Shown here: positions 9,841-24,893 of the stretch, in pieces
How positions within the stretch are numbered: position 1 is the stretch's first letter
Layout of the letters: every line of letters begins with the position of its first letter
Assembly: GCA_035390665.1 (NCBI GenBank)
Contig: DAOOUC010000002.1
Coordinates: forward strand, 90,001-122,000
Direction: 5' to 3'
Length of the DNA stretch: 32,000 nucleotides
Origin: an archaeon
GTDB taxonomy: Archaea > Iainarchaeota > Iainarchaeia > Iainarchaeales > CSSED10-239
Program-made: the position numbers and the translations under genes
The notes under the pieces: model-generated
The model's input: the letters and a program-made list of their open reading frames with translations, nothing else
Databases searched by the model: none
What the model was told of the DNA's origin: nothing

Positions 9841-11420
9841 ATAAGTGATTTTTGTCTTTCTTCCATTTCTTTAATTTTATTTTCCATTAAATTAAAGGTG
9901 TTGTTTATTTTTTCTATATTTTTGTCAATAATTGCAATAAATTGATCTCTAAACATATTTAGTTCTGTGATTTTTTCTTTAGCAATATCTATTGTAGTTT
10001 GTAATTGTTCAATTCTTTTAATTTCATCATCTACTGTTTTTATTTTTCCTTTTATTTCTTGAGTAATTGCGCTTTCGTAAATTTTTAGAGATTGTGAGAT
10101 TTTTTCATCAACGGCATTAATTAATTGAGATTCAAATCCTTCAAGTTCTTTTAATTTTCTATTAATAATTTCAGGATCGGTTTTAGCAACAATAGTGTCT
10201 TTTACTTTGTTTATTTCTAATAGTTCTTTTGCAATTTCATCTTTGAATGCTTCTCTAGCTTTAGTTAAAAATTCGTTCTTTACAGCATCAAATCTTAGTT
10301 CATATCTATTTGCTAATTGTTGTTTAAATGATTCTAATTGATTTAATTTATCATAAAGTTGTTGTGGATTTATTTGTTTATTTATTCCTTCTTTAAATTC
10401 ATTTAGTTTTTTAATTTCTTCAATTACTGCTGTTTGTGTATTCTTTATTAATCCTTGTGTGATTTTAGATTGTAAAGCAAGTATATCATTTATCTCTTTT
10501 ATTTTTGCATTTAATTTTACTGTGGTTGTTGCTACAATTTTATTTACATTTTCTTGATTTAGTTTAGTGGTCTCGGTTATTTGATTTTGGAATTCTTGGA
10601 ATTTAATCAAAAGTGCTTCTATTTCTTGTTTGCTATTGTTTATGTCTTCTGCTTTTTTGTTTATTTTCGCTTGCTCTACTTTTAATTGTGCAAGTTGTTT
10701 TGTTAATTGAGTAGAAATGCCACTTACTTGTTCAGCTACTTGTTCATTTATTTTACCCATTAATAATTGTTTTGTAGTTTCTTGGATTTTTTTGTATTTT
10801 TCTATTTCTAAATCAATTTTAGATTTTAAATATTCTTCCATTTTTGTTTGTCTAATTTCAACTTCATTGATTTTTGTATTAATTGTTGTAACAAGTCCTG
10901 TTTGCCAAACATCTGCAGTGTTATTAGTTGTTTCAATCTTAGAATATTCTGGTTCTTTTTTCTTTGTTGTTTGAGGGGTTGGTGTGTAGGTATTAAAATC
11001 ATCAAAAGACACTGTATCTTTATCGCTAGAATAGTCTAATCCACTAATATCTAAGCCTTTAGTAATATCAGGTATATCTTTAGTTTCATCTTTTGTTTCT
11101 GGAATTTCAGGAACTGTTAATTTAGCAATTTCTGTTTCTTCTGAAAATAAATTATCAGGTATTTCACTTTTGTTAAAAATAGTTTTTGGTTCTTCCGTAA
11201 TCTTAGTTGTCGTCACTTTAGAATCTGTACTTTTTATGTCGTTAACTTTTAATTCAGTAACAGAAGATGTTTTTGTTTCTTCAAAGGCATTACTAATTAA
11301 ATCATCACAATCTTTAGCTGAAAGTCCCATCTTTAATAAATTATCTTTAATGTCTTCTTTAGACATTCCTAAATCTTTTAATTTTTTTATATTTTCTATA
11401 ATTCTTGGATCTGGAATCAT
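9837..11420 (-). CDS. Protein with UBA-like N-terminal domain, Thr/Glu/Lys-rich linker and ~330-aa coiled coil; function unknown
   Basis: The N-terminus IENIKKLKDLGMSKEDIKDNLLKMGLSAKDCDDLISNA has the shape of a three-helix UBA/TS-N domain. A low-complexity linker follows, then heptad-rich sequence with repeated P-x-x-L/I-x-x-K-L-x-x-L-E-x-F-x-x-Q-L units. The start overlaps the adk stop (ATGA). Confidence 0.6.
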   Translation of the reverse strand: MIPDPRIIENIKKLKDLGMSKEDIKDNLLKMGLSAKDCDDLISNAFEETKTSSVTELKVNDIKSTDSKVTTTKITEEPKTIFNKSEIPDNLFSEETEIAKLTVPEIPETKDETKDIPDITKGLDISGLDYSSDKDTVSFDDFNTYTPTPQTTKKKEPEYSKIETTNNTADVWQTGLVTTINTKINEVEIRQTKMEEYLKSKIDLEIEKYKKIQETTKQLLMGKINEQVAEQVSGISTQLTKQLAQLKVEQAKINKKAEDINNSKQEIEALLIKFQEFQNQITETTKLNQENVNKIVATTTVKLNAKIKEINDILALQSKITQGLIKNTQTAVIEEIKKLNEFKEGINKQINPQQLYDKLNQLESFKQQLANRYELRFDAVKNEFLTKAREAFKDEIAKELLEINKVKDTIVAKTDPEIINRKLKELEGFESQLINAVDEKISQSLKIYESAITQEIKGKIKTVDDEIKRIEQLQTTIDIAKEKITELNMFRDQFIAIIDKNIEKINNTFNLMENKIKEMEERQKSLI

Positions 11421-11983
11421 ATTTTGTGTTCCTTTAATTTTCTTTTAATTTCTTTATAAACATTTTCAATTGATTGATTTCCATCAATTTCTATAAGTTT
11501 GCCTTTTTCTTTATATCTTTGAATTACTTTTTTTGTTATCTTGTCGTAATCTTCTAGTCTTTTCTTAATTGCTTTTTCTGTATCGTCATTTCTTTTTCTT
11601 AATAATAGTCTTTTTACACTTTCTTTTTTTGAAATATTAAGATGGATTACTCCAACTAATTCGTAATCATTAGAATGTAAAAAATAATCAAAAACTGCTG
11701 CTTGATCATATTCTCTTGGAAAGCCATCCATTAATATTTTATTTGATTTTTCTTTTTTTATTTTATTAAAAATTAAATCACTTGCAATTTCTAAAGAAAC
11801 CATATTTCCTTTACTTATGATTTCATTAATCTTTTTTCCTAAAATTGTTTTCTTATTTACTTCTTCTCTTAAGATTTCGCCCATAGAAAAAGGTTTGTAA
11901 CCAAAATCCCTTTCTATAAGTTTATTTTGGGTTCCTTTTCCGCTACCTGCTGGACCAACCATTATGATTATTTTTTTAGTCAT
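11417..11983 (-). CDS. adk: Adenylate kinase, short-lid bacterial/eukaryotic type
   Basis: The P-loop is GPAGSGKGTQ, followed by FSMGEILRE and LMDGFPRE. The 188-aa length and absence of a Cys4 lid indicate the short-lid type. It is not the archaeal trimeric AdkA type. Confidence 0.9.
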   Translation of the reverse strand: MTKKIIIMVGPAGSGKGTQNKLIERDFGYKPFSMGEILREEVNKKTILGKKINEIISKGNMVSLEIASDLIFNKIKKEKSNKILMDGFPREYDQAAVFDYFLHSNDYELVGVIHLNISKKESVKRLLLRKRNDDTEKAIKKRLEDYDKITKKVIQRYKEKGKLIEIDGNQSIENVYKEIKRKLKEHKI

Positions 11984-14349: not shown

Positions 14350-15116
14350 TTTTCAATTTCTTCTAATTCTTGTGCACCATTATCAGATGGTATTTCTTCA
14401 AAATGTATACAGATTGTGTGTCTATATTTTCTTCTGCCATCTTTGTCTGCAGTAATAAGAGATCTTGTTTTTTGCCAAGTTTTAGCGTGTTTGTTTAAAA
14501 TTATTGTTTTTCTAACTTTCTCAGTATGATCAATGTCATTTAAATAAATGTCAATACCTGTTTTTTGATCCACTTTTTTAGAAATAAAAAATGGTTTTGT
14601 TTTATTTGCAGCCGCATTGTTTATAGAATTAACTTGTGTTTCTATTTGTTTAACAAGTGCCGGTTGTAGTTCTTTTAAAAGTTCTTTAGTATCAAATCTT
14701 AATTGTAAAATAGTAGTATAGTAATGACTTGCAAATTTTAAACATTCAGCACAAGGTTCAACTCTAAAAGACACATCTTTTTCCATTGTTATTTCTTTTA
14801 TTGCATTTCCAAATAAGGCTTTAACAACAACTTTAACATAATATTCATGTCTTTCAAAGTCAGTAATAAAAGTAACCATTGGTTTTGCTTGCTCAAGTTC
14901 TTTTATCCTTATGTGTTTAGACAGTTCATGTTCAAGTTCTGGTTTTTTCATAAGTCTCTTAGCATATCTATAACTATCACATTTAGAACAATAAGTAATT
15001 TCAAATTTAGGTGCTGTGATTACAGGATTTTCAGAAACATAGCATTCAATACAGAAATTATTTATCATTTTTTCTTCTGGAACAGTCTTTCCACATTTTG
15101 GACAAAATCTTTGCAT
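14346..15116 (-). CDS. NMD3-family protein (archaeal homolog of the 60S export/maturation adaptor)
   Basis: The N-terminal Cys clusters are FCPKCG...FCIECY...YCSKCDSY, with a further CAEC. Length and layout match the short archaeal NMD3 N-terminal domain proteins. Confidence 0.75.
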   Translation of the reverse strand: MQRFCPKCGKTVPEEKMINNFCIECYVSENPVITAPKFEITYCSKCDSYRYAKRLMKKPELEHELSKHIRIKELEQAKPMVTFITDFERHEYYVKVVVKALFGNAIKEITMEKDVSFRVEPCAECLKFASHYYTTILQLRFDTKELLKELQPALVKQIETQVNSINNAAANKTKPFFISKKVDQKTGIDIYLNDIDHTEKVRKTIILNKHAKTWQKTRSLITADKDGRRKYRHTICIHFEEIPSDNGAQELEEIEN

Positions 15117-17205: not shown

Positions 17206-18141
17206 ATGTCATATAATTTAGATTTAAACACAAGTTTTCGTAAAAGAAAGCAATCTCCTAAGAGATACTGGCAATTTGTTTCTAAAAATAATCTTTTGGG
17301 AACAGCAATAACCGAAGATGCGAAATTAAATCCAAAAAAAGCATATTTTGATTTGTATGCTGTTAAACCTAAAGGCAAAATATTAATTCCAGGAGTAACA
17401 ATATCAACAGATTCTGGAGATGTTGTTGTCTATGCCCCATTTGAAGAAATTTATGATTATGGGGTAATCTATGAAGATAATGTATCCATAAAAAGAATAT
17501 ATGATCTTTGTGAAAGAAAGGGGTATCTAATGTCAATAGCTCACCCATTTGGACTAATAAATAATTCTGCAAGTTATATGATGGGGTTATCAAAACTTGA
17601 AAAATTTATTAAAGAAAAAAATGTAGGGGTGGAAGCATATAATGGAAGAATTGGATATCTTTCTTATTATATGTATGATTCTTATTTTTTAAAAACAATT
17701 AGGGATTTTTTATGGTATATTCAAGCACACAAAACATTCAAGTTACTTGGGTTATCTAAATTTGCAAATAAATTAAATCACAAAATAGATCAAAAAAGTT
17801 ATGACATGGTATATAAATTTGCAGCAACAATAAAGTTATCTCAATCAGCTAATTTTATAACAGCCGGTTCTGGAACAGATTATGTTGATAGAATAGGGAG
17901 CGGTGTTGTTACCATAGATTTACCAAAATCTTTTTTTGAGGAAACAAATATTTCTCAAAACCAAATACTACTTAACAAGATTTCAAAAAAAGAAATAATC
18001 TCTTTTGGACCACCAGGAAAATATACTGATGAATTGTTTGAGAGATCAACAGCAAGAATAACCAAATTAAAAGCATATGATGATTTAGTATATCTTACAA
18101 AAACAGCTTTTAAGATTGAAAAAAAAGAAAAAAAGAAGTAA
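17206..18141 (+). CDS. PHP-domain-like protein with most metal-ligand histidines substituted
   Basis: The order of conserved blocks follows PHP phosphoesterases: FDLYAV (vs DLHxH), IPGVTISTDSGDVVVY (vs G-x-E-i-s...H), SIAHPFG, VGVEAYNGR, GSGTDYVDRIGSG (vs SDAH...G). The assignment was made by eye only. Confidence 0.4.
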   Translation: MSYNLDLNTSFRKRKQSPKRYWQFVSKNNLLGTAITEDAKLNPKKAYFDLYAVKPKGKILIPGVTISTDSGDVVVYAPFEEIYDYGVIYEDNVSIKRIYDLCERKGYLMSIAHPFGLINNSASYMMGLSKLEKFIKEKNVGVEAYNGRIGYLSYYMYDSYFLKTIRDFLWYIQAHKTFKLLGLSKFANKLNHKIDQKSYDMVYKFAATIKLSQSANFITAGSGTDYVDRIGSGVVTIDLPKSFFEETNISQNQILLNKISKKEIISFGPPGKYTDELFERSTARITKLKAYDDLVYLTKTAFKIEKKEKKK

Positions 18142-18142
18142 T

Positions 18143-18874
18143 ATGTTTTTTATTTATCCAATGGTGTTTTTAACAATAATTTGTTTATTTTATCTAGTCT
18201 ATGAAGATTTAAGAACAAGAGAAATAAATACTATTCCTATTTATATATTATCAGGTATTGGTTTAATTTATAATTTATATTTTGGATTTTTATATAATTT
18301 CTGGAAATTATATATTTTACAATTATTAATTGTTTTAATATTTTTAATAATAATTTATTTATTAGGCAAAATAACTATTTATGCATATATTGGAGAAGGA
18401 GATTTGTTAACAATAATGATGATTTCTTTTACTAGCGGATATTCTGTTTTATTTTCTGAATTTGTATTTTTACTGGCTCTTTTCTTTATGTTATTTATTC
18501 CATTGATTTTCTTAGTATATAATTTATTAAAAAAGAACTATCCATCAAAAAAAATAAATAATAGATTTTCTTTAATGTTTTTAGGATTTCCGGTTTCTGT
18601 TTCAAAACTAAATAATTTCTTTACTCCGTTAGAGGAATATAAATTGAAAGACGGAAAAATCGAAAATAGTATTTTAATTAAACCTAATTGTGATTCTGAA
18701 ATCCAAATACAAAAGATAAAGGAAATAGCAATACAATATAATATAAAAAAAATATGGGCCTCTCCATTAATTCCATTTGTCTGGCCAATATTTATTGCTT
18801 ATCTTTTATTATTATTTTTCTTAATTTTAAGCAAATTGAATTTCTTTGGATTTTTTGCAACTCTATTTATTTAG
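18143..18874 (+). CDS. A24-family prepilin/preflagellin peptidase (FlaK/PibD-like aspartyl protease)
   Basis: Polytopic membrane protein. The first catalytic Asp context is LVYEDLRTREINTIP and the second is the G-x-G-D motif in AYIGEGDLLTIMMISF. ATG 18143 is preferred. The track start 18116 encodes KKKKKRSN and overlaps the upstream gene. Confidence 0.75.
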   Translation: MFFIYPMVFLTIICLFYLVYEDLRTREINTIPIYILSGIGLIYNLYFGFLYNFWKLYILQLLIVLIFLIIIYLLGKITIYAYIGEGDLLTIMMISFTSGYSVLFSEFVFLLALFFMLFIPLIFLVYNLLKKNYPSKKINNRFSLMFLGFPVSVSKLNNFFTPLEEYKLKDGKIENSILIKPNCDSEIQIQKIKEIAIQYNIKKIWASPLIPFVWPIFIAYLLLLFFLILSKLNFFGFFATLFI

Positions 18875-18947: not shown

Positions 18948-21314
18948 ATGGTTGAATTAAAAAAATTAAAACAGATTAAAGATAATCATATAAAAGAAAA
19001 TCAGCATCCTAAATACACCCCGCAAGAGTTGTCTAACTATGAGCATAAACAAATTACTTTAAAAAAAATTAAAACTCGTGGAGAATCTAATTACATTCCA
19101 CCAAAATCTGCAATTGTTGAAGAAAAAAAACCAAATTCTATTAATTCTAAAATCCCTGTTGAGGATTTACAAAATAGAATGATTGAAGAAAATTTATTAT
19201 TTCAAATAGAGAAAAAAAAGTTAGAAATTATTTCTGATGACCTTAAAGATAATAATATTTCTAAAGATTATAATTTGATAGATGTATCTGATTCAAATAT
19301 TGATGATTTGCTTGAGAATCTAAATAAGCAAACTACAAATATAGATGAAGATAAACCGTTTTTAGAATCTATATCTTTTTTGGATGATGTTCCAAAAATA
19401 AATAAAATTGCGATTCCAAATTTAGATGTTTCTAACCTATATGCGAAAATAGATGAAATAGAAAAAAAAAGAGAACAATCAAAAGTAATCCAGACAGAAT
19501 ATCTAAATCAGAATAATCTTAAGAATCCACTACAAAATAATAACAAAGAAAAAAAAATAGACATTGTTCCATTAATTGAAAAAATTGAAATTCCAGAAAT
19601 TATGACTTTAGATGATGATACAAAAATTACAGAATCAATAAAGAATGATTTTATAAGTTTAGAAAAAAAGGCAGTTACAGAAAAAATAAAAGAATCTAAT
19701 TTTGTAAATTCTAATAAAGAATTGAAACAAAATCCAGAAATAGAGAATAGAATAAAAGATATAAAGATAAAAGCAGATAACATTAAAATATCTACGCCTG
19801 TAGAATATAAAAAAGAAAATACAAAAATAAAAGAATTAGAAAAAGTAAATTATATTTTACCTAAAGATTATTTAACTAATAAAGGGCCTGTAGCTTATGA
19901 TGCAATAAAAAATAAGCAAAAAATTAATTTAATTTATGATTCAGAAGTTAAATCCAAATCCATAAATAAATCTGAAATTAATGAAAAATACAATATAGAT
20001 GAATTTACATTTGTTAATATTAATTATAAAGAAAACAGCCTTTTTTATAATATAATCCAACCAGAATTAACAAAGACACAAGAGGAAACACTTTCTGAAG
20101 TAAAAAGGGCGTTTCTAGATTCTATTGATGCAAATTATTATTCTTTTAAAGGAGATAAACAAGGGATTCAAAGTTATATAAAAAAGATATTTGATTTGAC
20201 TTTAGAAAAATTATCCTTTGATTTAACAAGCTTAGAAAAGAAACAATATTTTAATTTCATAAAACAAGAATTTTCTGGATTGGGATTTTTAGCAAGTATA
20301 TTAGAGGATAAAAATATAATTGAGGTAAATTGTGGAGGAGTAGGATTACCAATTATGGTTTATCATACTAAATATGGGTTAATTCAAACTAATTTAAAAT
20401 TTGAAAAAATGTCTCAATTAAATTTATTTGTATTATCTTTAACTAAAGTTATGGGATTAAGGGTAAATTCTTCTCAACCATTAATTAATGGCTATCTCCC
20501 AAATGGATATAAAGTTGAAGGATTATATTCTGTAGGAGATACAAGTAATAAAGGATCATCCTTTATAATTAAGAAATATTTAGAAGAACCATTAACCCCA
20601 AATCAATTAATAAATTTAGGTATAGGTACAATAGATGTCTTTTCATATATTTGGTGTGCAATAGATCAAAATTATCAGGTCGCAATTACAGGTGGAGATT
20701 CTGTACTTTTGATTAATTCTATTGTTCAATTATATCCTAATAAAAAGATTGCAAGTGTTCAATCTTATGATTATTTTAAATTCCCACAAAAAAATTGGAT
20801 AAAAAGAATGATACATAATGAGACGGCACTAGATAAGAAAACATTATTATCTCAAACACTTTCTGAAAGGCCAGATTATATTATTGTGGATGATTTTACT
20901 AAAGAATTATTTGATACAAAATGGTATGATTATAGTTTAATTTATGCTGATTCAAATATTATTGGAGAATATATAGAGAAGGTTAAATCTATAGGCACAA
21001 ATACAATCATCATTTATTTAGATAGAATAAAATCTCGCGATTTTGAACAAACACAAATATTAAAAATAATAGAAATAGATAAAGGAAAAGAACAAAAAAT
21101 CATAGAATTTAACATTGATGATGGGAGTTATCATTTTAACTTAGTGCCTTCTAATATTAATATTGTTGATTTTTTAAAAAAGCAGAAATTACTTAGATGG
21201 ATATCAGACACAGATATATCTGATTATTTAGATTTTAATAATCTAATTAATGATTATTATTTAGATTCTAAAAAATTATTTAACAAATTAAATATAATAG
21301 AAAAAGAGCAATAG
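18948..21314 (+). CDS. FlaI/PilB/GspE-family (T2SSE) secretion NTPase homolog with eroded nucleotide-binding motifs and a ~340-aa low-complexity N-terminal extension
   Basis: FlaI-type N-domain blocks are conserved (YNIIQPELTKTQEETL, IIEVNCGG...MVYHTKYGLIQTNLKF, PLINGYLPNGYKVEGLY, SSFIIKKY). The core aligns to the ATPase domain, but Walker A reads ITGGDSVLLINS, Walker B reads RPDYIIVDDFTKE, and no GKT/GKS occurs anywhere. Confidence 0.8.
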   Translation: MVELKKLKQIKDNHIKENQHPKYTPQELSNYEHKQITLKKIKTRGESNYIPPKSAIVEEKKPNSINSKIPVEDLQNRMIEENLLFQIEKKKLEIISDDLKDNNISKDYNLIDVSDSNIDDLLENLNKQTTNIDEDKPFLESISFLDDVPKINKIAIPNLDVSNLYAKIDEIEKKREQSKVIQTEYLNQNNLKNPLQNNNKEKKIDIVPLIEKIEIPEIMTLDDDTKITESIKNDFISLEKKAVTEKIKESNFVNSNKELKQNPEIENRIKDIKIKADNIKISTPVEYKKENTKIKELEKVNYILPKDYLTNKGPVAYDAIKNKQKINLIYDSEVKSKSINKSEINEKYNIDEFTFVNINYKENSLFYNIIQPELTKTQEETLSEVKRAFLDSIDANYYSFKGDKQGIQSYIKKIFDLTLEKLSFDLTSLEKKQYFNFIKQEFSGLGFLASILEDKNIIEVNCGGVGLPIMVYHTKYGLIQTNLKFEKMSQLNLFVLSLTKVMGLRVNSSQPLINGYLPNGYKVEGLYSVGDTSNKGSSFIIKKYLEEPLTPNQLINLGIGTIDVFSYIWCAIDQNYQVAITGGDSVLLINSIVQLYPNKKIASVQSYDYFKFPQKNWIKRMIHNETALDKKTLLSQTLSERPDYIIVDDFTKELFDTKWYDYSLIYADSNIIGEYIEKVKSIGTNTIIIYLDRIKSRDFEQTQILKIIEIDKGKEQKIIEFNIDDGSYHFNLVPSNINIVDFLKKQKLLRWISDTDISDYLDFNNLINDYYLDSKKLFNKLNIIEKEQ

Positions 21315-21316
21315 AT

Positions 21317-22159
21317 ATGTTTGGAAAATTTTTTACAAAGATTTCTGAATTCTTCTTTTCAGAGATATCTAAACTTATTGTTCCGAAATTTAAAGAATTA
21401 TCTAAAACTCTTTCATTTACTGATATTGAAGAAGATGCTCAAACATATCTTTCAAATATATTGTTTTTATCTTTCCTTATAGGAATAATCTTAGAATTTT
21501 TAATGATTTTTGTAATGCTTAAATTAAATATATTATTTAATATTTTTACTTTTGTCTTAACAATAATAATTGCCTTTACCTTTGCAGGGTTAATTTTTAT
21601 TATATTATATAATTATCCAAAATTTATTTTATTATCTAATAAAAAAAAGATAGAAGAAGAATTAGAAACAAGCATAAAGCATCTTTCTGTTTTACAGGAT
21701 AAGAATTTAACTGTGAAAGATGTACTTTACTTATTACAAAAAATAGATAATAACAAAATACTTACTGTAGAATCAAAAAGAATATTATCTATGTCTGATT
21801 TAAATAAAAATCTTAAAGAAACATTAAAATATATGTGTGATAATACCTATTCTGAACAAGAATATAGCTTCTTATCTAAATTAATAGAAGTCTTGGATGG
21901 GAAATACAAATTGGATCAAGTAATAAATGAATATTTTTTGTCTACGGAGCAAACAAGAAAAGAAAAAGAAGAACATCAAAGAAGTAGAATTACCTTGTTA
22001 TTTGAAATAAATATTTTTTTGTTCTTTTTAATCTTTGTTTTAATCTTTAGTGTTTTCTTAATGCCTATATATAGAAATTCAATAAAAGAGATTTTATTTG
22101 CTATTGCAATTATTTTTCCAATTATTGAATTAATTTTAATAATAATATTAAGTAAGTGA
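21317..22159 (+). CDS. Single-T2SSF-domain membrane protein (FlaJ/TadB-like platform subunit)
   Basis: N-terminal TM helices are followed by a ~110-aa soluble helical domain (EELETSIKHLSVL...LKETLKYM...LSKLIEVLDG) and then C-terminal TM helices. This is the T2SSF topology. The gene starts 2 nt after the NTPase homolog. Confidence 0.6.
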   Translation: MFGKFFTKISEFFFSEISKLIVPKFKELSKTLSFTDIEEDAQTYLSNILFLSFLIGIILEFLMIFVMLKLNILFNIFTFVLTIIIAFTFAGLIFIILYNYPKFILLSNKKKIEEELETSIKHLSVLQDKNLTVKDVLYLLQKIDNNKILTVESKRILSMSDLNKNLKETLKYMCDNTYSEQEYSFLSKLIEVLDGKYKLDQVINEYFLSTEQTRKEKEEHQRSRITLLFEINIFLFFLIFVLIFSVFLMPIYRNSIKEILFAIAIIFPIIELILIIILSK

Positions 22160-22166
22160 AAAATTA

Positions 22167-23297
22167 ATGAGTGTAAATAAAACCACAAATAAAGAAATTA
22201 ATTTGTTTTTCTATAATCATGAATATACCATCTTAAATATTGCAGGAATAATTTGTGGTCTTATTATTTTATGGATTGCAAATAACTTTTTTGTTGATAG
22301 TAAGATATATTATCTGATATTTATTTTTGGATTGTTAGTTGGGGGATTTGGTTTTGTTATAGAATATTATATAAAAAATGAAAAACGTAAGTCTTTAGAA
22401 ACAGAATTTAGTTATTTTTTATATGATTTATCTAAGGAATATAAAAAAACAAACAATTTATCTTTAGCATTAACAAATATATCTGAATATAATTTTTATG
22501 GAGACATAAATACAGATATAAAAAGATTAGCAAATAGAGTATCTTGGGGAGATTCTTTTGAGGATGCATTAGAGTCAATAAATAAAAACATAAATAGTTC
22601 TGTTATTATTCACACACTTGTATTACTTAGAGCATTAAAGAAATCATCGGTCTCTTATGATATAATTTTAAAGAATATATCCAAGGATCTTAAAATATTT
22701 AAAAGTGAAGATCGTTCAAAAAAGTATTTTTCAAATTTATTTTATTTGTCTTTGGTTTTTTATTTTGTATTTATTTTTGTTTTATTATATATTGACCACA
22801 TTATTGGTGGAAATTTTCTGTGGAGTAGTAATGCAGAAGTAGTTACAAGAATATTCTTTGATAATTTTATGCTTTATTTGGCATTGCTTTTAGGGGTTTT
22901 TACTGCTTACGTTATGTATTCTATAAAAAAAGACAAAGGCATAAATTTTGTTAAATATATTCTATTAATGTTTATAATAACCGTTATCTTATTTCAAATC
23001 TTTGCACCAAAACCAGAGGCTGAAAGAATTTTAATAGATACAATAGAATATATGATCAAAAATAATGAAACAAAAGTAGAAATAGATAATGCAATTGCAT
23101 TAAAGACAATAAGTTCTAAATACATTTCTGAAAAAGTAGAGACCGAAACTATATATTTTCAACAGGTTGATAATTTAAGTTGTTTCTCTGAAGAATGTAA
23201 AGAGTTTACTATCTTTGTTAATGAGCCAGCATTCTATGATTTTATTATCGAGAAACAAGAAAATAATCATTTTATTATATATTATAAAAAAGTTTAA
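22167..23297 (+). CDS. Single-T2SSF-domain membrane protein (FlaJ/TadC-like) with an extra ~100-aa C-terminal domain
   Basis: Two TM helices are followed by a soluble helical domain (ETEFSYFLYDLSKE...IKRLANRVSWGDSFEDALESI...LVLLRALKKS), further TM helices, and a C-terminal domain containing CFSEEC. Confidence 0.6.
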   Translation: MSVNKTTNKEINLFFYNHEYTILNIAGIICGLIILWIANNFFVDSKIYYLIFIFGLLVGGFGFVIEYYIKNEKRKSLETEFSYFLYDLSKEYKKTNNLSLALTNISEYNFYGDINTDIKRLANRVSWGDSFEDALESINKNINSSVIIHTLVLLRALKKSSVSYDIILKNISKDLKIFKSEDRSKKYFSNLFYLSLVFYFVFIFVLLYIDHIIGGNFLWSSNAEVVTRIFFDNFMLYLALLLGVFTAYVMYSIKKDKGINFVKYILLMFIITVILFQIFAPKPEAERILIDTIEYMIKNNETKVEIDNAIALKTISSKYISEKVETETIYFQQVDNLSCFSEECKEFTIFVNEPAFYDFIIEKQENNHFIIYYKKV

Positions 23298-23309: not shown

Positions 23310-23675
23310 ATGATAAAAAACATTACAAAGAAAAAATTAATAATTAGTGATTATAAGATTGCAAATACTGTTTTTTCTAGAGGATTAGGGTTAATGTTTT
23401 CCAGAAAATCAAAATTTAATTATGGATTAATATTTGACTTAGAAAGAGAAACAGTTATTGGAGCAAGTTTGCATATGTTTTTTGTATTTTATCCAATAAA
23501 TGTAATATTTTTGAATTCAAAAAAACAAATTGTGGATATCAAAACCGATTTTAGGCCATTTACATTTTATTCTACAAATAAGAAATGCAGGTATATTATT
23601 GAATTACCTAAAAAGATTGGATTAAGATATTATTCTTTAAATGATAGAATTTCTTGGAAAAACATCAAAAATTGA
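23310..23675 (+). CDS. DUF192-family protein
   Basis: ANTVFSRGLGLMF...GLIF...SLHMFFVFYPINVIFLNSKKQIVDI...YIIELP follows the DUF192 (COG1430) pattern (GLM, then MxF, then D/N-V-I-F-L). Confidence 0.7.
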   Translation: MIKNITKKKLIISDYKIANTVFSRGLGLMFSRKSKFNYGLIFDLERETVIGASLHMFFVFYPINVIFLNSKKQIVDIKTDFRPFTFYSTNKKCRYIIELPKKIGLRYYSLNDRISWKNIKN

Positions 23676-23865
23676 TGATTTTCTTGTGTTTTTATTATGT
23701 AGACTTTGAAAATCAAACTGATTTCTAATTGTTGGTTTAAATTAACTACCAGTAACCATATATAAAGATTTTAGGACTATAACATATACAGTAATCTATT
23801 ACCTAGATTTCCACAAAAGAATAAAAGGCAGAAAAGAGGAAGAGAAGAAACATACTGTTTAACAG

Positions 23866-23891
23866 GAACAGGTCCCTGTTCTTTTCTTCTT
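23866..23891 (+). terminator. Hairpin GAACAG-GTCC-CTGTTC followed by TTTTCTTCTT
   Basis: Read directly, with the stem at 23866-23871 / 23876-23881. It is nested inside a second possible stem AGAAGAAA (23843-23850) / TTTCTTCT (23883-23890). Confidence 0.35.
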
Positions 23892-23962
23892 AGAAATTAA
23901 TTACATTTGTGGCTTAATTGCCCCAAAACCTTTTCCTTCCCCAAAAGAAGAGGTAAACTAAG

Positions 23963-23993
23963 GAGCCCAAATGGGCTCAAGTTCTATTTTTAT
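23963..23993 (+). terminator. Hairpin GAGCCC-AAAT-GGGCTC followed by a T-rich run
   Basis: Inverted repeat at 23963-23969 / 23972-23978, with TCTATTTTTATT downstream. The stem also sequesters an AAGGAG (23960-23965) and an ATG (23971). Confidence 0.35.
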
Positions 23994-24122: not shown

Positions 24123-24893
24123 ATGGGATTAAGACCAGGACATTGTTATTGTCAAAATGTTAAAAAAAGAGCATATTCAAGAATTGCAGTTAAAGTTCAT
24201 AAAAAGAACTTTATTGGTGGTGTACCAGGATTAAAGATAAGACAGTTTCACATGGGTAATGGGAATAGAGCATATACGCATGTAATTCATTTTACTACAA
24301 AAAACAAGGTACAGATTAGAGACAATGCAATTGAAGCAGTAAGACAAAGTGTTGTAAGACAGTTAAACAAGAAATTAACGGCAGTAAACTATTATATGAA
24401 AGTAAGAGTTTATCCTCAATTTTTCTTAAGAGAAAACAAACAAGCACAAGGGGCACACGCAGATAGAATTCAAACAGGAATGAGTCAATGTCCTTTTGGA
24501 AAAGTTGTTGGTAGAGCTTCAAGAGTAAGAGCAGGACAGAAAATATATAGTGTCTTAGTTGATGAAGCAAATGTTAAATTTGTTAAGGAACTTTTCGAAA
24601 GAATGGGTTCAAAGTTCCCTACAGAAATGAAAGTTATTGTTGAAAAGAATACAGATAATTTAAAGTCTGTTGGAACAGTAAGAAAGAAAAGAAAGATGAA
24701 GGAAGAAGAAGAAACAAAAGCCGCAACAACAGAAGCAGCACCAGCAGCAGGTAAAGATGCAAAAGCAGCAGCTCCTGCAAAGGGCGCAGCTCCAGCTAAA
24801 GGTGCAGCACCTGCAAAAGGCGCAGCTCCCGCAGGTAAAGATGCAAAAGCAGCAGCTCCAGCAAAGGGCGCAGCTCCAGCAAAGAAGAAATAA
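24123..24893 (+). CDS. rpl10e: Ribosomal protein uL16 (L10e) with ~80-aa Lys/Ala/Pro/Gly-rich C-terminal extension
   Basis: MGLRPGHCYC...GGVPGLKIRQFHMG...VRVYPQFFLRENKQAQGAHADRIQTGMSQCPFGKVVGRASRV is unmistakably L10e. The conserved core ends near residue 176. The tail is KKRKMKEEEE...AAPAKGAAPAKGAAPAKGAAPAGKDAKAAAPAKGAAPAKKK. AGGTGA lies 7 nt upstream. Confidence 0.92.
   Translation: MGLRPGHCYCQNVKKRAYSRIAVKVHKKNFIGGVPGLKIRQFHMGNGNRAYTHVIHFTTKNKVQIRDNAIEAVRQSVVRQLNKKLTAVNYYMKVRVYPQFFLRENKQAQGAHADRIQTGMSQCPFGKVVGRASRVRAGQKIYSVLVDEANVKFVKELFERMGSKFPTEMKVIVEKNTDNLKSVGTVRKKRKMKEEEETKAATTEAAPAAGKDAKAAAPAKGAAPAKGAAPAKGAAPAGKDAKAAAPAKGAAPAKKK
24747..24880. repeat. Near-perfect 50-nt direct duplication with 84-nt period, containing 18-nt (AAPAKG) sub-repeats, inside the L10e tail
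   Basis: GCAGGTAAAGATGCAAAAGCAGCAGCTCC[T/A]GCAAAGGGCGCAGCTCCAGC occurs at 24747-24796 and again at 24831-24880 with one difference. The segment is GC-rich within an AT-rich window. Confidence 0.8.

Follow-up and report, generated by a model that had tools for sequence, protein, structure and literature searches.

A conserved secretion-ATPase homologue without nucleotide-hydrolysis motifs in Iainarchaeota

The reading frame, its fold and its former motifs

The DNA analysed here, referred to as the window, is a stretch of 32,000 nucleotides (nt) from a small symbiotic-type archaeon of the Iainarchaeota (DPANN), corresponding to positions 90,001 to 122,000 of the forward strand of contig DAOOUC010000002.1 (assembly GCA_035390665.1). 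It is AT-rich, with a GC content of 0.22 to 0.30, and its gene content is archaeal, comprising NMD3, a beta-CASP/RMMBL (aCPSF-like) nuclease, uL16/L10e and archaeal-type aminoacyl-tRNA synthetases. At 18948..21314 (+) it harbours an open reading frame (ORF) with an ATG start which encodes a homologue of FlaI/GspE-type secretion ATPases comprising 788 amino acids (aa) and devoid of any nucleotide-hydrolysis motif, henceforth called the pseudo-ATPase. An earlier note on this DNA, made from the sequence alone, had described the ORF as intact and had located the loss of its catalytic motifs at 20676-20960. The ORF is found uninterrupted as claimed, and the interval corresponds to aa 577 to 671 and spans the four former motifs. 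Around the ORF the GC content amounts to about 0.22, at which roughly one codon in ten is a stop codon; by our own calculation, a frame of 788 open codons is expected by chance with a probability of about 1e-36. The start of the protein, MVELKKL, is kept across the orthologues described below.

Pfam T2SSE (PF00437) does not match the pseudo-ATPase even at E<=1, and the protein also misses a curated cut-off (NCBIfam NF058587, 120.9 bits versus 550 required). Homology was therefore established via NCBIfam, a phmmer search of the PDB and a fold search. The NCBIfam FlaI profile matches aa 332 to 649 with an E value of 6.5e-35, while phmmer retrieves the structures of afGspE (2OAP, E 7.5e-36) and FlaI (4II7/4IHQ, about 1e-26). 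An AlphaFold 2 (AF2) model of aa 337 to 788, computed with 12 orthologues as input, reaches a predicted local distance difference test score (pLDDT) of 86.6 and a predicted template modelling score (pTM) of 0.80. Superimposition of this core by Foldseek yields 2OAP and the FlaI chains as matches (E 2e-32 to 8e-30, about 490 columns, template modelling score up to 0.77), followed by CpaF, VirB11, PilT and PilB, which agrees with the assignment of the earlier note to the FlaI/PilB-type proteins. The gene product is thus a member of the FlaI/GspE/PilB secretion-ATPase superfamily which retains the two-domain fold as well as the C-terminal helical bundle.

Three regions can be distinguished outside the degenerate core. 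The N-terminal extension (aa 1 to 336, 18948..19955 (+)) is rich in lysine, glutamate and asparagine and predicted to be disordered, nearly all of aa 1 to 325 showing a pLDDT below 50 in the full-length AF2 model. Its length ranges from about 330 to 680 aa depending on the orthologue, and the orthologue alignment reveals several short motifs which are kept within it, namely PFLESISFLDDxPKI, VSNLYAKID, LIExIEIPEI and FxYILPxD. The subsequent N-terminal domain (NTD) of the ATPase fold (aa 337 to 560, 19956..20627 (+)) aligns to the NTD of FlaI and afGspE and constitutes the best conserved region of the protein. At the opposite end, a PilB3_C-like helical bundle (aa 739 to 781, 21162..21290 (+)), which is common to archaeal PilB/FlaI-type ATPases, is matched by Pfam PilB3_C below the cut-off (E 5.7e-4). 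The same motif is aligned in canonical relatives, the helices are modelled at high pLDDT, and Trp751, Asp762 and Asn764 are invariant.

For the comparison of the motifs we used HMMER alignments to 2OAP and 4II7/4IHQ, a MAFFT alignment in which 21 family members were combined with 14 canonical relatives, and hmmalign. At the former Walker A site (aa 577 to 591, QVAITGGDSVLLINS, 20676..20720 (+)) the canonical GGTASGKT[TS]xLN is opposed by TG-GDS--VLLIN in the window protein, which lacks the Lys-Thr pair, and in most orthologues acidic residues fill the former P-loop. The shortening of the P-loop with deletion of Lys-Thr had been recognised before; its extent, previously put at about three residues, turns out to be two to three residues depending on the orthologue. 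The former Asp box (aa 601 to 610, IASVQSYDYF, 20748..20777 (+)) reads SVQSYDY where the canonical enzymes have SIEDTxE, so that IEDTxE is replaced. Within the former Walker B segment (aa 641 to 653, RPDYIIVDDFTKE, 20868..20906 (+)) the strand and its aspartate are retained, yet LRQRPDYIIVGEVRGxEA of the canonical proteins corresponds to LSERPDYIIVDDFTKELF (PDYIIVGEVRG to PDYIIVDDFTK); the position of the catalytic glutamate is occupied by D, E, N, Q, Y, H, V or T within the family and the next arginine is lost. The former His box region (aa 657 to 669, TKWYDYSLIYADS, 20916..20954 (+)) does not contain any histidine since ATGHxxxxTxHA falls within a gap of five residues (KWYDY-----SLIYAD). Relative to the canonical proteins, a further 9 residues are missing at the PPIxLP loop, and stretches of 18 and 6 residues are missing from the C-terminal subdomain. 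Blocks flanking the altered motifs, on the other hand, match their canonical counterparts in the phmmer and MAFFT alignments, as the earlier note had stated (LPNGYKVEG versus LPDGSRVQA; KGSSFIIKKY versus RGSxFTIRKF). Judged from these alignments, the Lys-Thr of the P-loop, the Asp box, the catalytic glutamate, the neighbouring arginine residues and the His box are all lost. None of the three alignment procedures reveals a functional P-loop, and GK[ST], whose absence from the window protein had been noted before, occurs neither there nor in any family member examined.

Distribution, conservation and selection

A word-indexed search produced 13 orthologues with a core identity of 49 to 100%, followed by a gap down to canonical ATPases at 25 to 27%; none of these 13 proteins carries a precomputed Pfam domain. 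A profile search among 1.84 billion representatives gave a similar picture with 16 proteins at 582 to 758 bits and the next match at 270 bits. The lengths of these proteins vary from 757 to 1132 aa, owing to the variable N-terminal extension. A further 17 loci came from scans of GTDB genomes and 29 from scans of JGI metagenomes. In total, uninterrupted family ORFs, all of them without GK[ST], are present on about 45 contigs which stem from metagenome-assembled genomes of Iainarchaeota/Diapherotrites and from metagenomes of many studies. All named records of family loci refer to an archaeon, Ca. Iainarchaeum, ainarchaeum, Diapherotrites or Ca. Forterrea multitransposorum, and the sole publicly named family member is annotated as "hypothetical protein". 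The 33 unique cores are 45 to 72% identical to that of the window protein and, in a rough neighbour-joining tree, the family forms a single clade with a long stem inside archaeal FlaI/PilB-type proteins. Hence, the pseudo-ATPases form a discrete family in Iainarchaeota (Diapherotrites, DPANN).

Degenerate motifs were also observed outside this family. Among the top 150 representatives, four further archaeal T2SSE homologues are affected: P0047 does not contain GKT, P0127 has GKH, P0115 has GRT, and P0122 carries changes in its Asp box, Walker B and His box. As P0115 and P0122 are nested in canonical clades of the rough tree, degeneration appears from the sequences to be independent at least in these two. 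Two others, P0055 and P0068, are canonical archaeal secretion ATPases which appear to be split close to the His box, each by large insertions several hundred residues long; with sequence ends of the type ...HNTGH, these insertions look like inteins.

Across the 33 unique cores conservation is highest in the NTD (0.70), and the segments with the lowest values include the former P-loop (0.53). Gln605, Phe650 and Trp659 are invariant, and Asp608 and Asp648 are kept in at least 90% of the cores. Since these five residues are situated at the old active site and the RecA-like core is predicted at high confidence, one may ask whether the pseudo-ATPase still acts as an NTPase or nucleotide binder by means of a non-canonical site. 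We consider this very improbable: the P-loop, which is shortened by two to three residues and mostly acidic, does not offer a lysine or a threonine/serine in any member, it is less conserved than the NTD, the glutamate position varies freely, the His box and the flanking arginine residues are gone, and no other GK[ST] is available in the protein. A related idea, according to which the old active site has been repurposed, had arisen from an apparently invariant Asp584 in 13 sequences; it was abandoned when the set of 33 sequences placed the P-loop among the least conserved parts.

Selection was assessed as the ratio of non-synonymous to synonymous substitution rates (dN/dS, Nei-Gojobori, NG86) for the nine pairs with unsaturated dS, for which values between 0.09 and 0.37 were obtained. 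Comparison of the window with L004 yields 0.15, with 14 synonymous and 9 non-synonymous changes, the latter all located within the disordered N-terminus. In the pair L003/L005 the value is 0.093 for the whole gene, 0.14 for the N-terminal extension, 0.048 for the NTD, 0.094 for the C-terminus and 0.10 for the degenerate part of the C-terminal domain (aa 561 to 660). Further pairs show 0.15 (L036/L006), 0.145 (L011/L012), 0.17 (L054/L055), 0.33 (L054/L056) and 0.37 (L036/L060), the last value being based on 13 changes only. By region, the N-terminal extension (0.14 to 0.41) is less constrained than the core, with 0.05 to 0.17 for the NTD. Between the window and L001 the pseudo-ATPase core is 53% identical, while the remaining operon genes are 44 to 62% identical.

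The degenerate motifs, along with the failure of automated annotation to assign a Pfam domain or any name other than "hypothetical protein", might be taken as signs of a decaying pseudogene or of an assembly or annotation artefact. However, about 45 independent contigs, which stem from many studies, all show the frame open over 757 to 1132 aa, its start and N-terminus are conserved and the AF2 fold is confident. The low dN/dS values and a core conservation equal to or higher than that of the operon genes effectively exclude a decaying pseudogene, an explanation to which we attach practically no weight. Neither frameshifts nor relaxed selection were observed among the orthologues and the fold is retained from end to end, in keeping with the argument of the earlier note for selection rather than decay. 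We are highly confident that the pseudo-ATPase is maintained by purifying selection.

Neighbouring genes and a second, intact ATPase

The pseudo-ATPase gene belongs to a set of closely spaced genes on the same strand. Upstream of it, a gene for a class III signal (prepilin) peptidase of the FlaK/PibD type is found at 18116..18874 (+) (Pfam Arc_PepC_II 6.2e-10 and Peptidase_A24 1.3e-5; NCBIfam FlaK 1.4e-10). Both catalytic aspartate contexts, YEDLRTREI and IGEGD, are present, so the peptidase is apparently active; its true start is probably a downstream methionine (MFFIYPM...), as in the 243-aa calls of its orthologues. The gene is preceded by one for a conserved protein of 311 aa without assigned function or Pfam match (17206..18141 (+)), whose orthologue, 59 to 98% identical, lies directly upstream of the peptidase gene in every sufficiently long locus and which may be a further component of the gene set. 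Downstream, the platform protein is encoded in two halves. The N-terminal half (280 aa, 21317..22159 (+)) is T2SSF/FlaJ-like, matching Pfam T2SSF above the cut-off of 25.2 bits (1.5e-6, 28.7 bits) and positions 3 to 243 of the 555 positions of NCBIfam ArlJ/FlaJ (E 5.8e-11). The T2SSF-like second half (376 aa, 22167..23297 (+)) scores just under the Pfam cut-off (6.7e-5, 23.3 bits). The T2SSF proteins which the earlier note had placed next to the ATPase homologue are thereby borne out. The last conserved gene of the set codes for a DUF192 protein of 121 aa (23310..23675 (+), Pfam DUF192 5.6e-13). From the peptidase gene onwards, the intergenic gaps measure 73, 2, 7 and 12 nt. A sigma-70 promoter scan of the operon, i.e. 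a search with a bacterial model inapplicable to archaea, found 62 sites versus 59.8 expected, which equals chance.

The order 311-aa protein, peptidase, pseudo-ATPase, two platform halves and DUF192 is fixed in sufficiently long loci, the exception being one lineage (L011, L040 and L041) which is considered below. A recorded call of 494 aa in L002 (13268-14752) suggested a fusion of the second platform half with DUF192, but the DNA contains an in-frame stop between them, and the call is either erroneous or based on a different genetic code assumed for that assembly. DUF192 also adjoins the module of another ATPase, described below, in L064, a lineage without a pseudo-ATPase locus.

All deeper subclades (at most 53% identity to the window) carry one to three pilin-like genes directly after DUF192, a linkage we take to be ancestral; about 20 loci show it, among them L001/L044 (14723-17350), L046 (10937-17758), L048 (13906-21318), L052 (9478-13041) and L054-L056 (from about 13780). 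Their products comprise 173 to 2471 aa and possess class III-like N-termini in which a short basic stretch is followed by helices of the KKSISAIISVVLLILVTAVLVAGFLSWSK type (KKSISAIISVVLLILV...LSWSK), with the overall pattern KK[AS]IS..I.VVLLILV...LSWSK. Some of them contain Laminin_G_3 or Big_12 domains, and judging by sequence the large ones may be giant pilin-anchored adhesins.

In the window's subclade, a conserved non-coding element lies between DUF192 and the downstream gene for uL16. The spacer between the two genes measures 447 nt in the window and holds the element of about 200 nt at about 23760-23985 (+); the element is also present in L002 (about 14870-15060), L003, L005, L006, L007, L009, L011 and L012. 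An exact 15-mer of the element is shared by 9 loci, and identity in the spacer alignment averages 78%. The element hardly varies between genomes, its DNA being conserved far beyond the flanking genes, whose synonymous sites are saturated. A TATA-like box (ATATATAAAGATTTT) lies upstream, the 3' end is formed by a hairpin and a T-run of genome-dependent sequence, and the element folds significantly better than shuffled sequence (z -3.6). No Rfam family matches it, and we regard it as a candidate for a new, unannotated small RNA gene. In a second segment, 23668-23726 (+), which overlaps the end of the DUF192 gene, UGAUGA ... CUGA are arranged like C and D boxes. Rfam matches this segment weakly and below threshold (SNORD30, 22.5 bits, E 0.81); either an archaeal C/D box sRNA or mere chance may account for the arrangement. 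The uL16/L10e gene itself (24123-24893 (+)) encodes a C-terminal tail rich in alanine, proline and lysine (AAPAKGAAPAKG...), which arises from about seven copies of a GC-rich 18-nt repeat (24759-24883) in this AT-rich genome, while its orthologues bear other low-complexity, lysine-rich tails.

Among the ORFs of at least 100 aa in the window no other T2SSE-type ATPase is encoded. In L010, however, the DUF192 gene of the dead module is directly followed by a gene for an ATPase of 596 aa (10080-11870 (+)) and two small T2SSF-like genes. This protein combines an N-terminal 4Fe-4S ferredoxin domain with a canonical T2SSE domain (VVGNTGSGKTTTLN; Pfam T2SSE 1.7e-34), a combination suggestive of a pilus motor bearing a redox-sensitive domain. 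A ferredoxin-fused ATPase is encoded on the same contig as a pseudo-ATPase in two further cases (JAQVTI010000004.1 and NPID01000316.1), so that, as far as gene content tells, at least three genomes combine one dead and one live module. P0183 was left out of this count since it shares with P0010 the assembly GCA_015657915.1, which consists of thousands of contigs and is probably metagenome-level; P0190, P0268 and P0258, when traced to their contigs, did not fall on any contig of the pseudo-ATPase family. The ferredoxin-fused ATPase is common in Iainarchaeota and other DPANN, with at least 120 matches down to about 32% identity, some of which are labelled "CpaF family ATPase/ferredoxin" by JGI. 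Additional loci are L023, L026, L027, L030-L034, L064 and L066, and in many genomes the ferredoxin-fused ATPase has no dead module nearby.

Proposed role and comparison with known systems

According to current descriptions, the platform protein of type IV filament machines (pili, archaella, type II secretion) has to be driven by a hexameric ATPase. The pseudo-ATPase locus possesses the platform and the two-aspartate class III peptidase of an archaeal type IV filament module but apparently lacks a competent ATPase of its own. With moderate confidence we interpret the protein as a selected pseudo-ATPase serving as a non-catalytic ring or adaptor of a type-IV-filament-like machine which receives its energy from another protein. 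Given the motif loss, neither ATP binding nor hydrolysis would be possible at its classical site, and it would act as a structural or regulatory subunit at the cytoplasmic face of the machine. It would probably form a ring or another oligomer via the well-conserved NTD and dock on the split platform, while the disordered N-terminal arm with its short motifs would tether or recruit partners. Energy for filament assembly, if needed at all, would come from elsewhere, most plausibly from the co-resident ferredoxin-fused T2SSE module. The proposed ring or adaptor role is suggested by the concentration of selective constraint in the NTD and the C-terminal helices; in active GspE, FlaI and PilB homologues these parts provide the contacts between subunits and with partners.

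Several points weigh against this interpretation. To begin with, we infer oligomerisation, platform binding and the lack of nucleotide binding alike. Furthermore, the matches of the pilin-like proteins to pilin profiles are weak (UpsA, E 0.086; arch_flag_Nterm, E 0.14), and no pilin-like gene is present in the window locus or elsewhere in the loci of its subclade. In addition, both T2SSF platform genes are gone from the locus in L011 (8834-11757), L040 and L041, which represent one lineage and nevertheless keep the peptidase, DUF192 and an intact pseudo-ATPase at a dN/dS of 0.16. This loss implies that the function of the pseudo-ATPase may not depend on an adjacent platform; either the platform genes have been relocated in this lineage or the role of the pseudo-ATPase is independent of them. 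At the conserved positions the platform-less L011 copy is no outlier, its five deviations lying within the range of the family.

The platform-less loci and the absence of a pilin-like gene from those of the window's subclade would also suit a protein which has left the pilus machine altogether and acts as a cytoplasmic scaffold or regulator, for instance via its disordered arm, the place in the operon being merely historical. The long disordered N-terminus with its conserved motifs, an extension which classical FlaI lacks, would fit such a role as well. Yet elsewhere, in all sufficiently long loci, the stop of the pseudo-ATPase gene and the start of the platform gene overlap or are only a few bases apart. 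Moreover, gene order remains constant down to about 45% sequence identity, pilin-like genes follow directly downstream in the deeper subclades, and the platform genes of L011 may sit elsewhere in that genome. We therefore judge a role detached from the machine to be rather unlikely.

As regards the source of energy, the earlier note had considered the pseudo-ATPase a possible partner of an active paralogue. This is borne out in part, in that an intact ATPase is encoded on the same contig in three cases; the intact protein, however, belongs to a distant clade and is accompanied by its own platform. Further points against our interpretation are that the co-occurrence of dead and live genes was established on three contigs only and that the ferredoxin-fused ATPase, which shares about 20 to 22% identity with the pseudo-ATPase, is distant in the rough tree and comes with two platform genes of its own. 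Distant clade and separate platform argue against a simple shared ring. Mixed rings of dead and live subunits, or direct regulation of the ferredoxin-fused ATPase by the pseudo-ATPase, could be envisaged from the direct succession of the two in L010 and their presence on one contig in two further genomes, but with such low similarity, adjacency in only one of about 45 loci and many genomes having the live module with no dead one nearby, we consider this explanation improbable.

Starting again from the non-catalytic ring, a bolder and only tentative view is that Iainarchaeota build a type-IV-filament-like structure in which the place of the motor is permanently held by a dead ring, the first natural pseudo-enzyme among secretion ATPases, with power supplied in trans or not needed. 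Power would then come from the redox-sensing ferredoxin-fused ATPase, or the structure would require none and mediate contact with the host as a static anchor or as a conduit.

Like afGspE (2OAP) and FlaI (4IHQ/4II7), the pseudo-ATPase displays the two-domain fold, the NTD blocks and the C-terminal bundle, and is encoded alongside a platform gene. Unlike these enzymes, it does not possess Walker A, the Asp box, the catalytic glutamate or the His box, several of its loops are deleted, and a disordered extension of 330 to 680 aa precedes the fold. Bacterial pili, too, employ more than one P-loop protein per filament machine, some of them in supporting roles: the accessory paralogues PilT and PilU are both active ATPases, and TadZ/CpaE is a localisation factor of the MinD/ParA family with an atypical Walker A. 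Among these, however, there is no T2SSE homologue which has lost every catalytic motif. In the archaellum, FlaH (ArlH), a RecA/KaiC-like ATP binder with poor hydrolytic activity, modulates FlaI; it is cited in this role by Makarova et al. 2016 (PMC4858521). FlaH thus provides a precedent for a non-hydrolysing structural or regulatory component of P-loop fold in an archaeal type IV filament machine, but it is KaiC/RecA-like and has kept Walker A and ATP binding, while the pseudo-ATPase has the T2SSE fold and its P-loop is gone.

Two tadC-like platform genes per locus have been reported for clades 1, 2 and 4B of archaeal type IV filaments (Makarova et al. 2016, PMC4858521), and two platform genes also for "system 1"/subsystem 4A in a 2026 census (bioRxiv 10.64898/2026.04.22.720090). 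The loci described here resemble these systems in the two platform genes next to an ATPase homologue, the class III peptidase, the genes with pilin-like N-termini in the deeper subclades and the occurrence in DPANN. In contrast, published accounts of those systems count a functional ATPase among the defining core components, and the abstract of the 2026 census includes the ATPase in the defining minimal core of archaeal systems. Neither PMC4858521 nor bioRxiv 10.64898/2026.04.22.720090 mentions inactive ATPases or ferredoxin fusions; "inactive" and "Walker" are no topic in either, and the same applies to "inactivated" in the former and to "degenerate" and "ferredoxin" in the latter. In the literature searched, which mostly did not extend to subscription journals, we found no description of the family and no archaeal or DPANN secretion ATPase reported as inactive or degenerate.

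That a whole clade retains a dead ATPase under selection suggests a role for the ring, structural or regulatory, which is separable from catalysis. The family provides a "separation-of-function" variant of natural origin with which docking of the ring on the platform can be studied. It is also relevant to the way in which contact structures are built by host-dependent DPANN archaea. As the pseudo-ATPases escape Pfam-based annotation, censuses of pilus systems will miss or misclassify the family. On the bolder view of a permanently dead ring, dead motor homologues, such as those represented by P0047, P0127, P0115 and P0122, may be a recurrent and overlooked part of archaeal surface machines.

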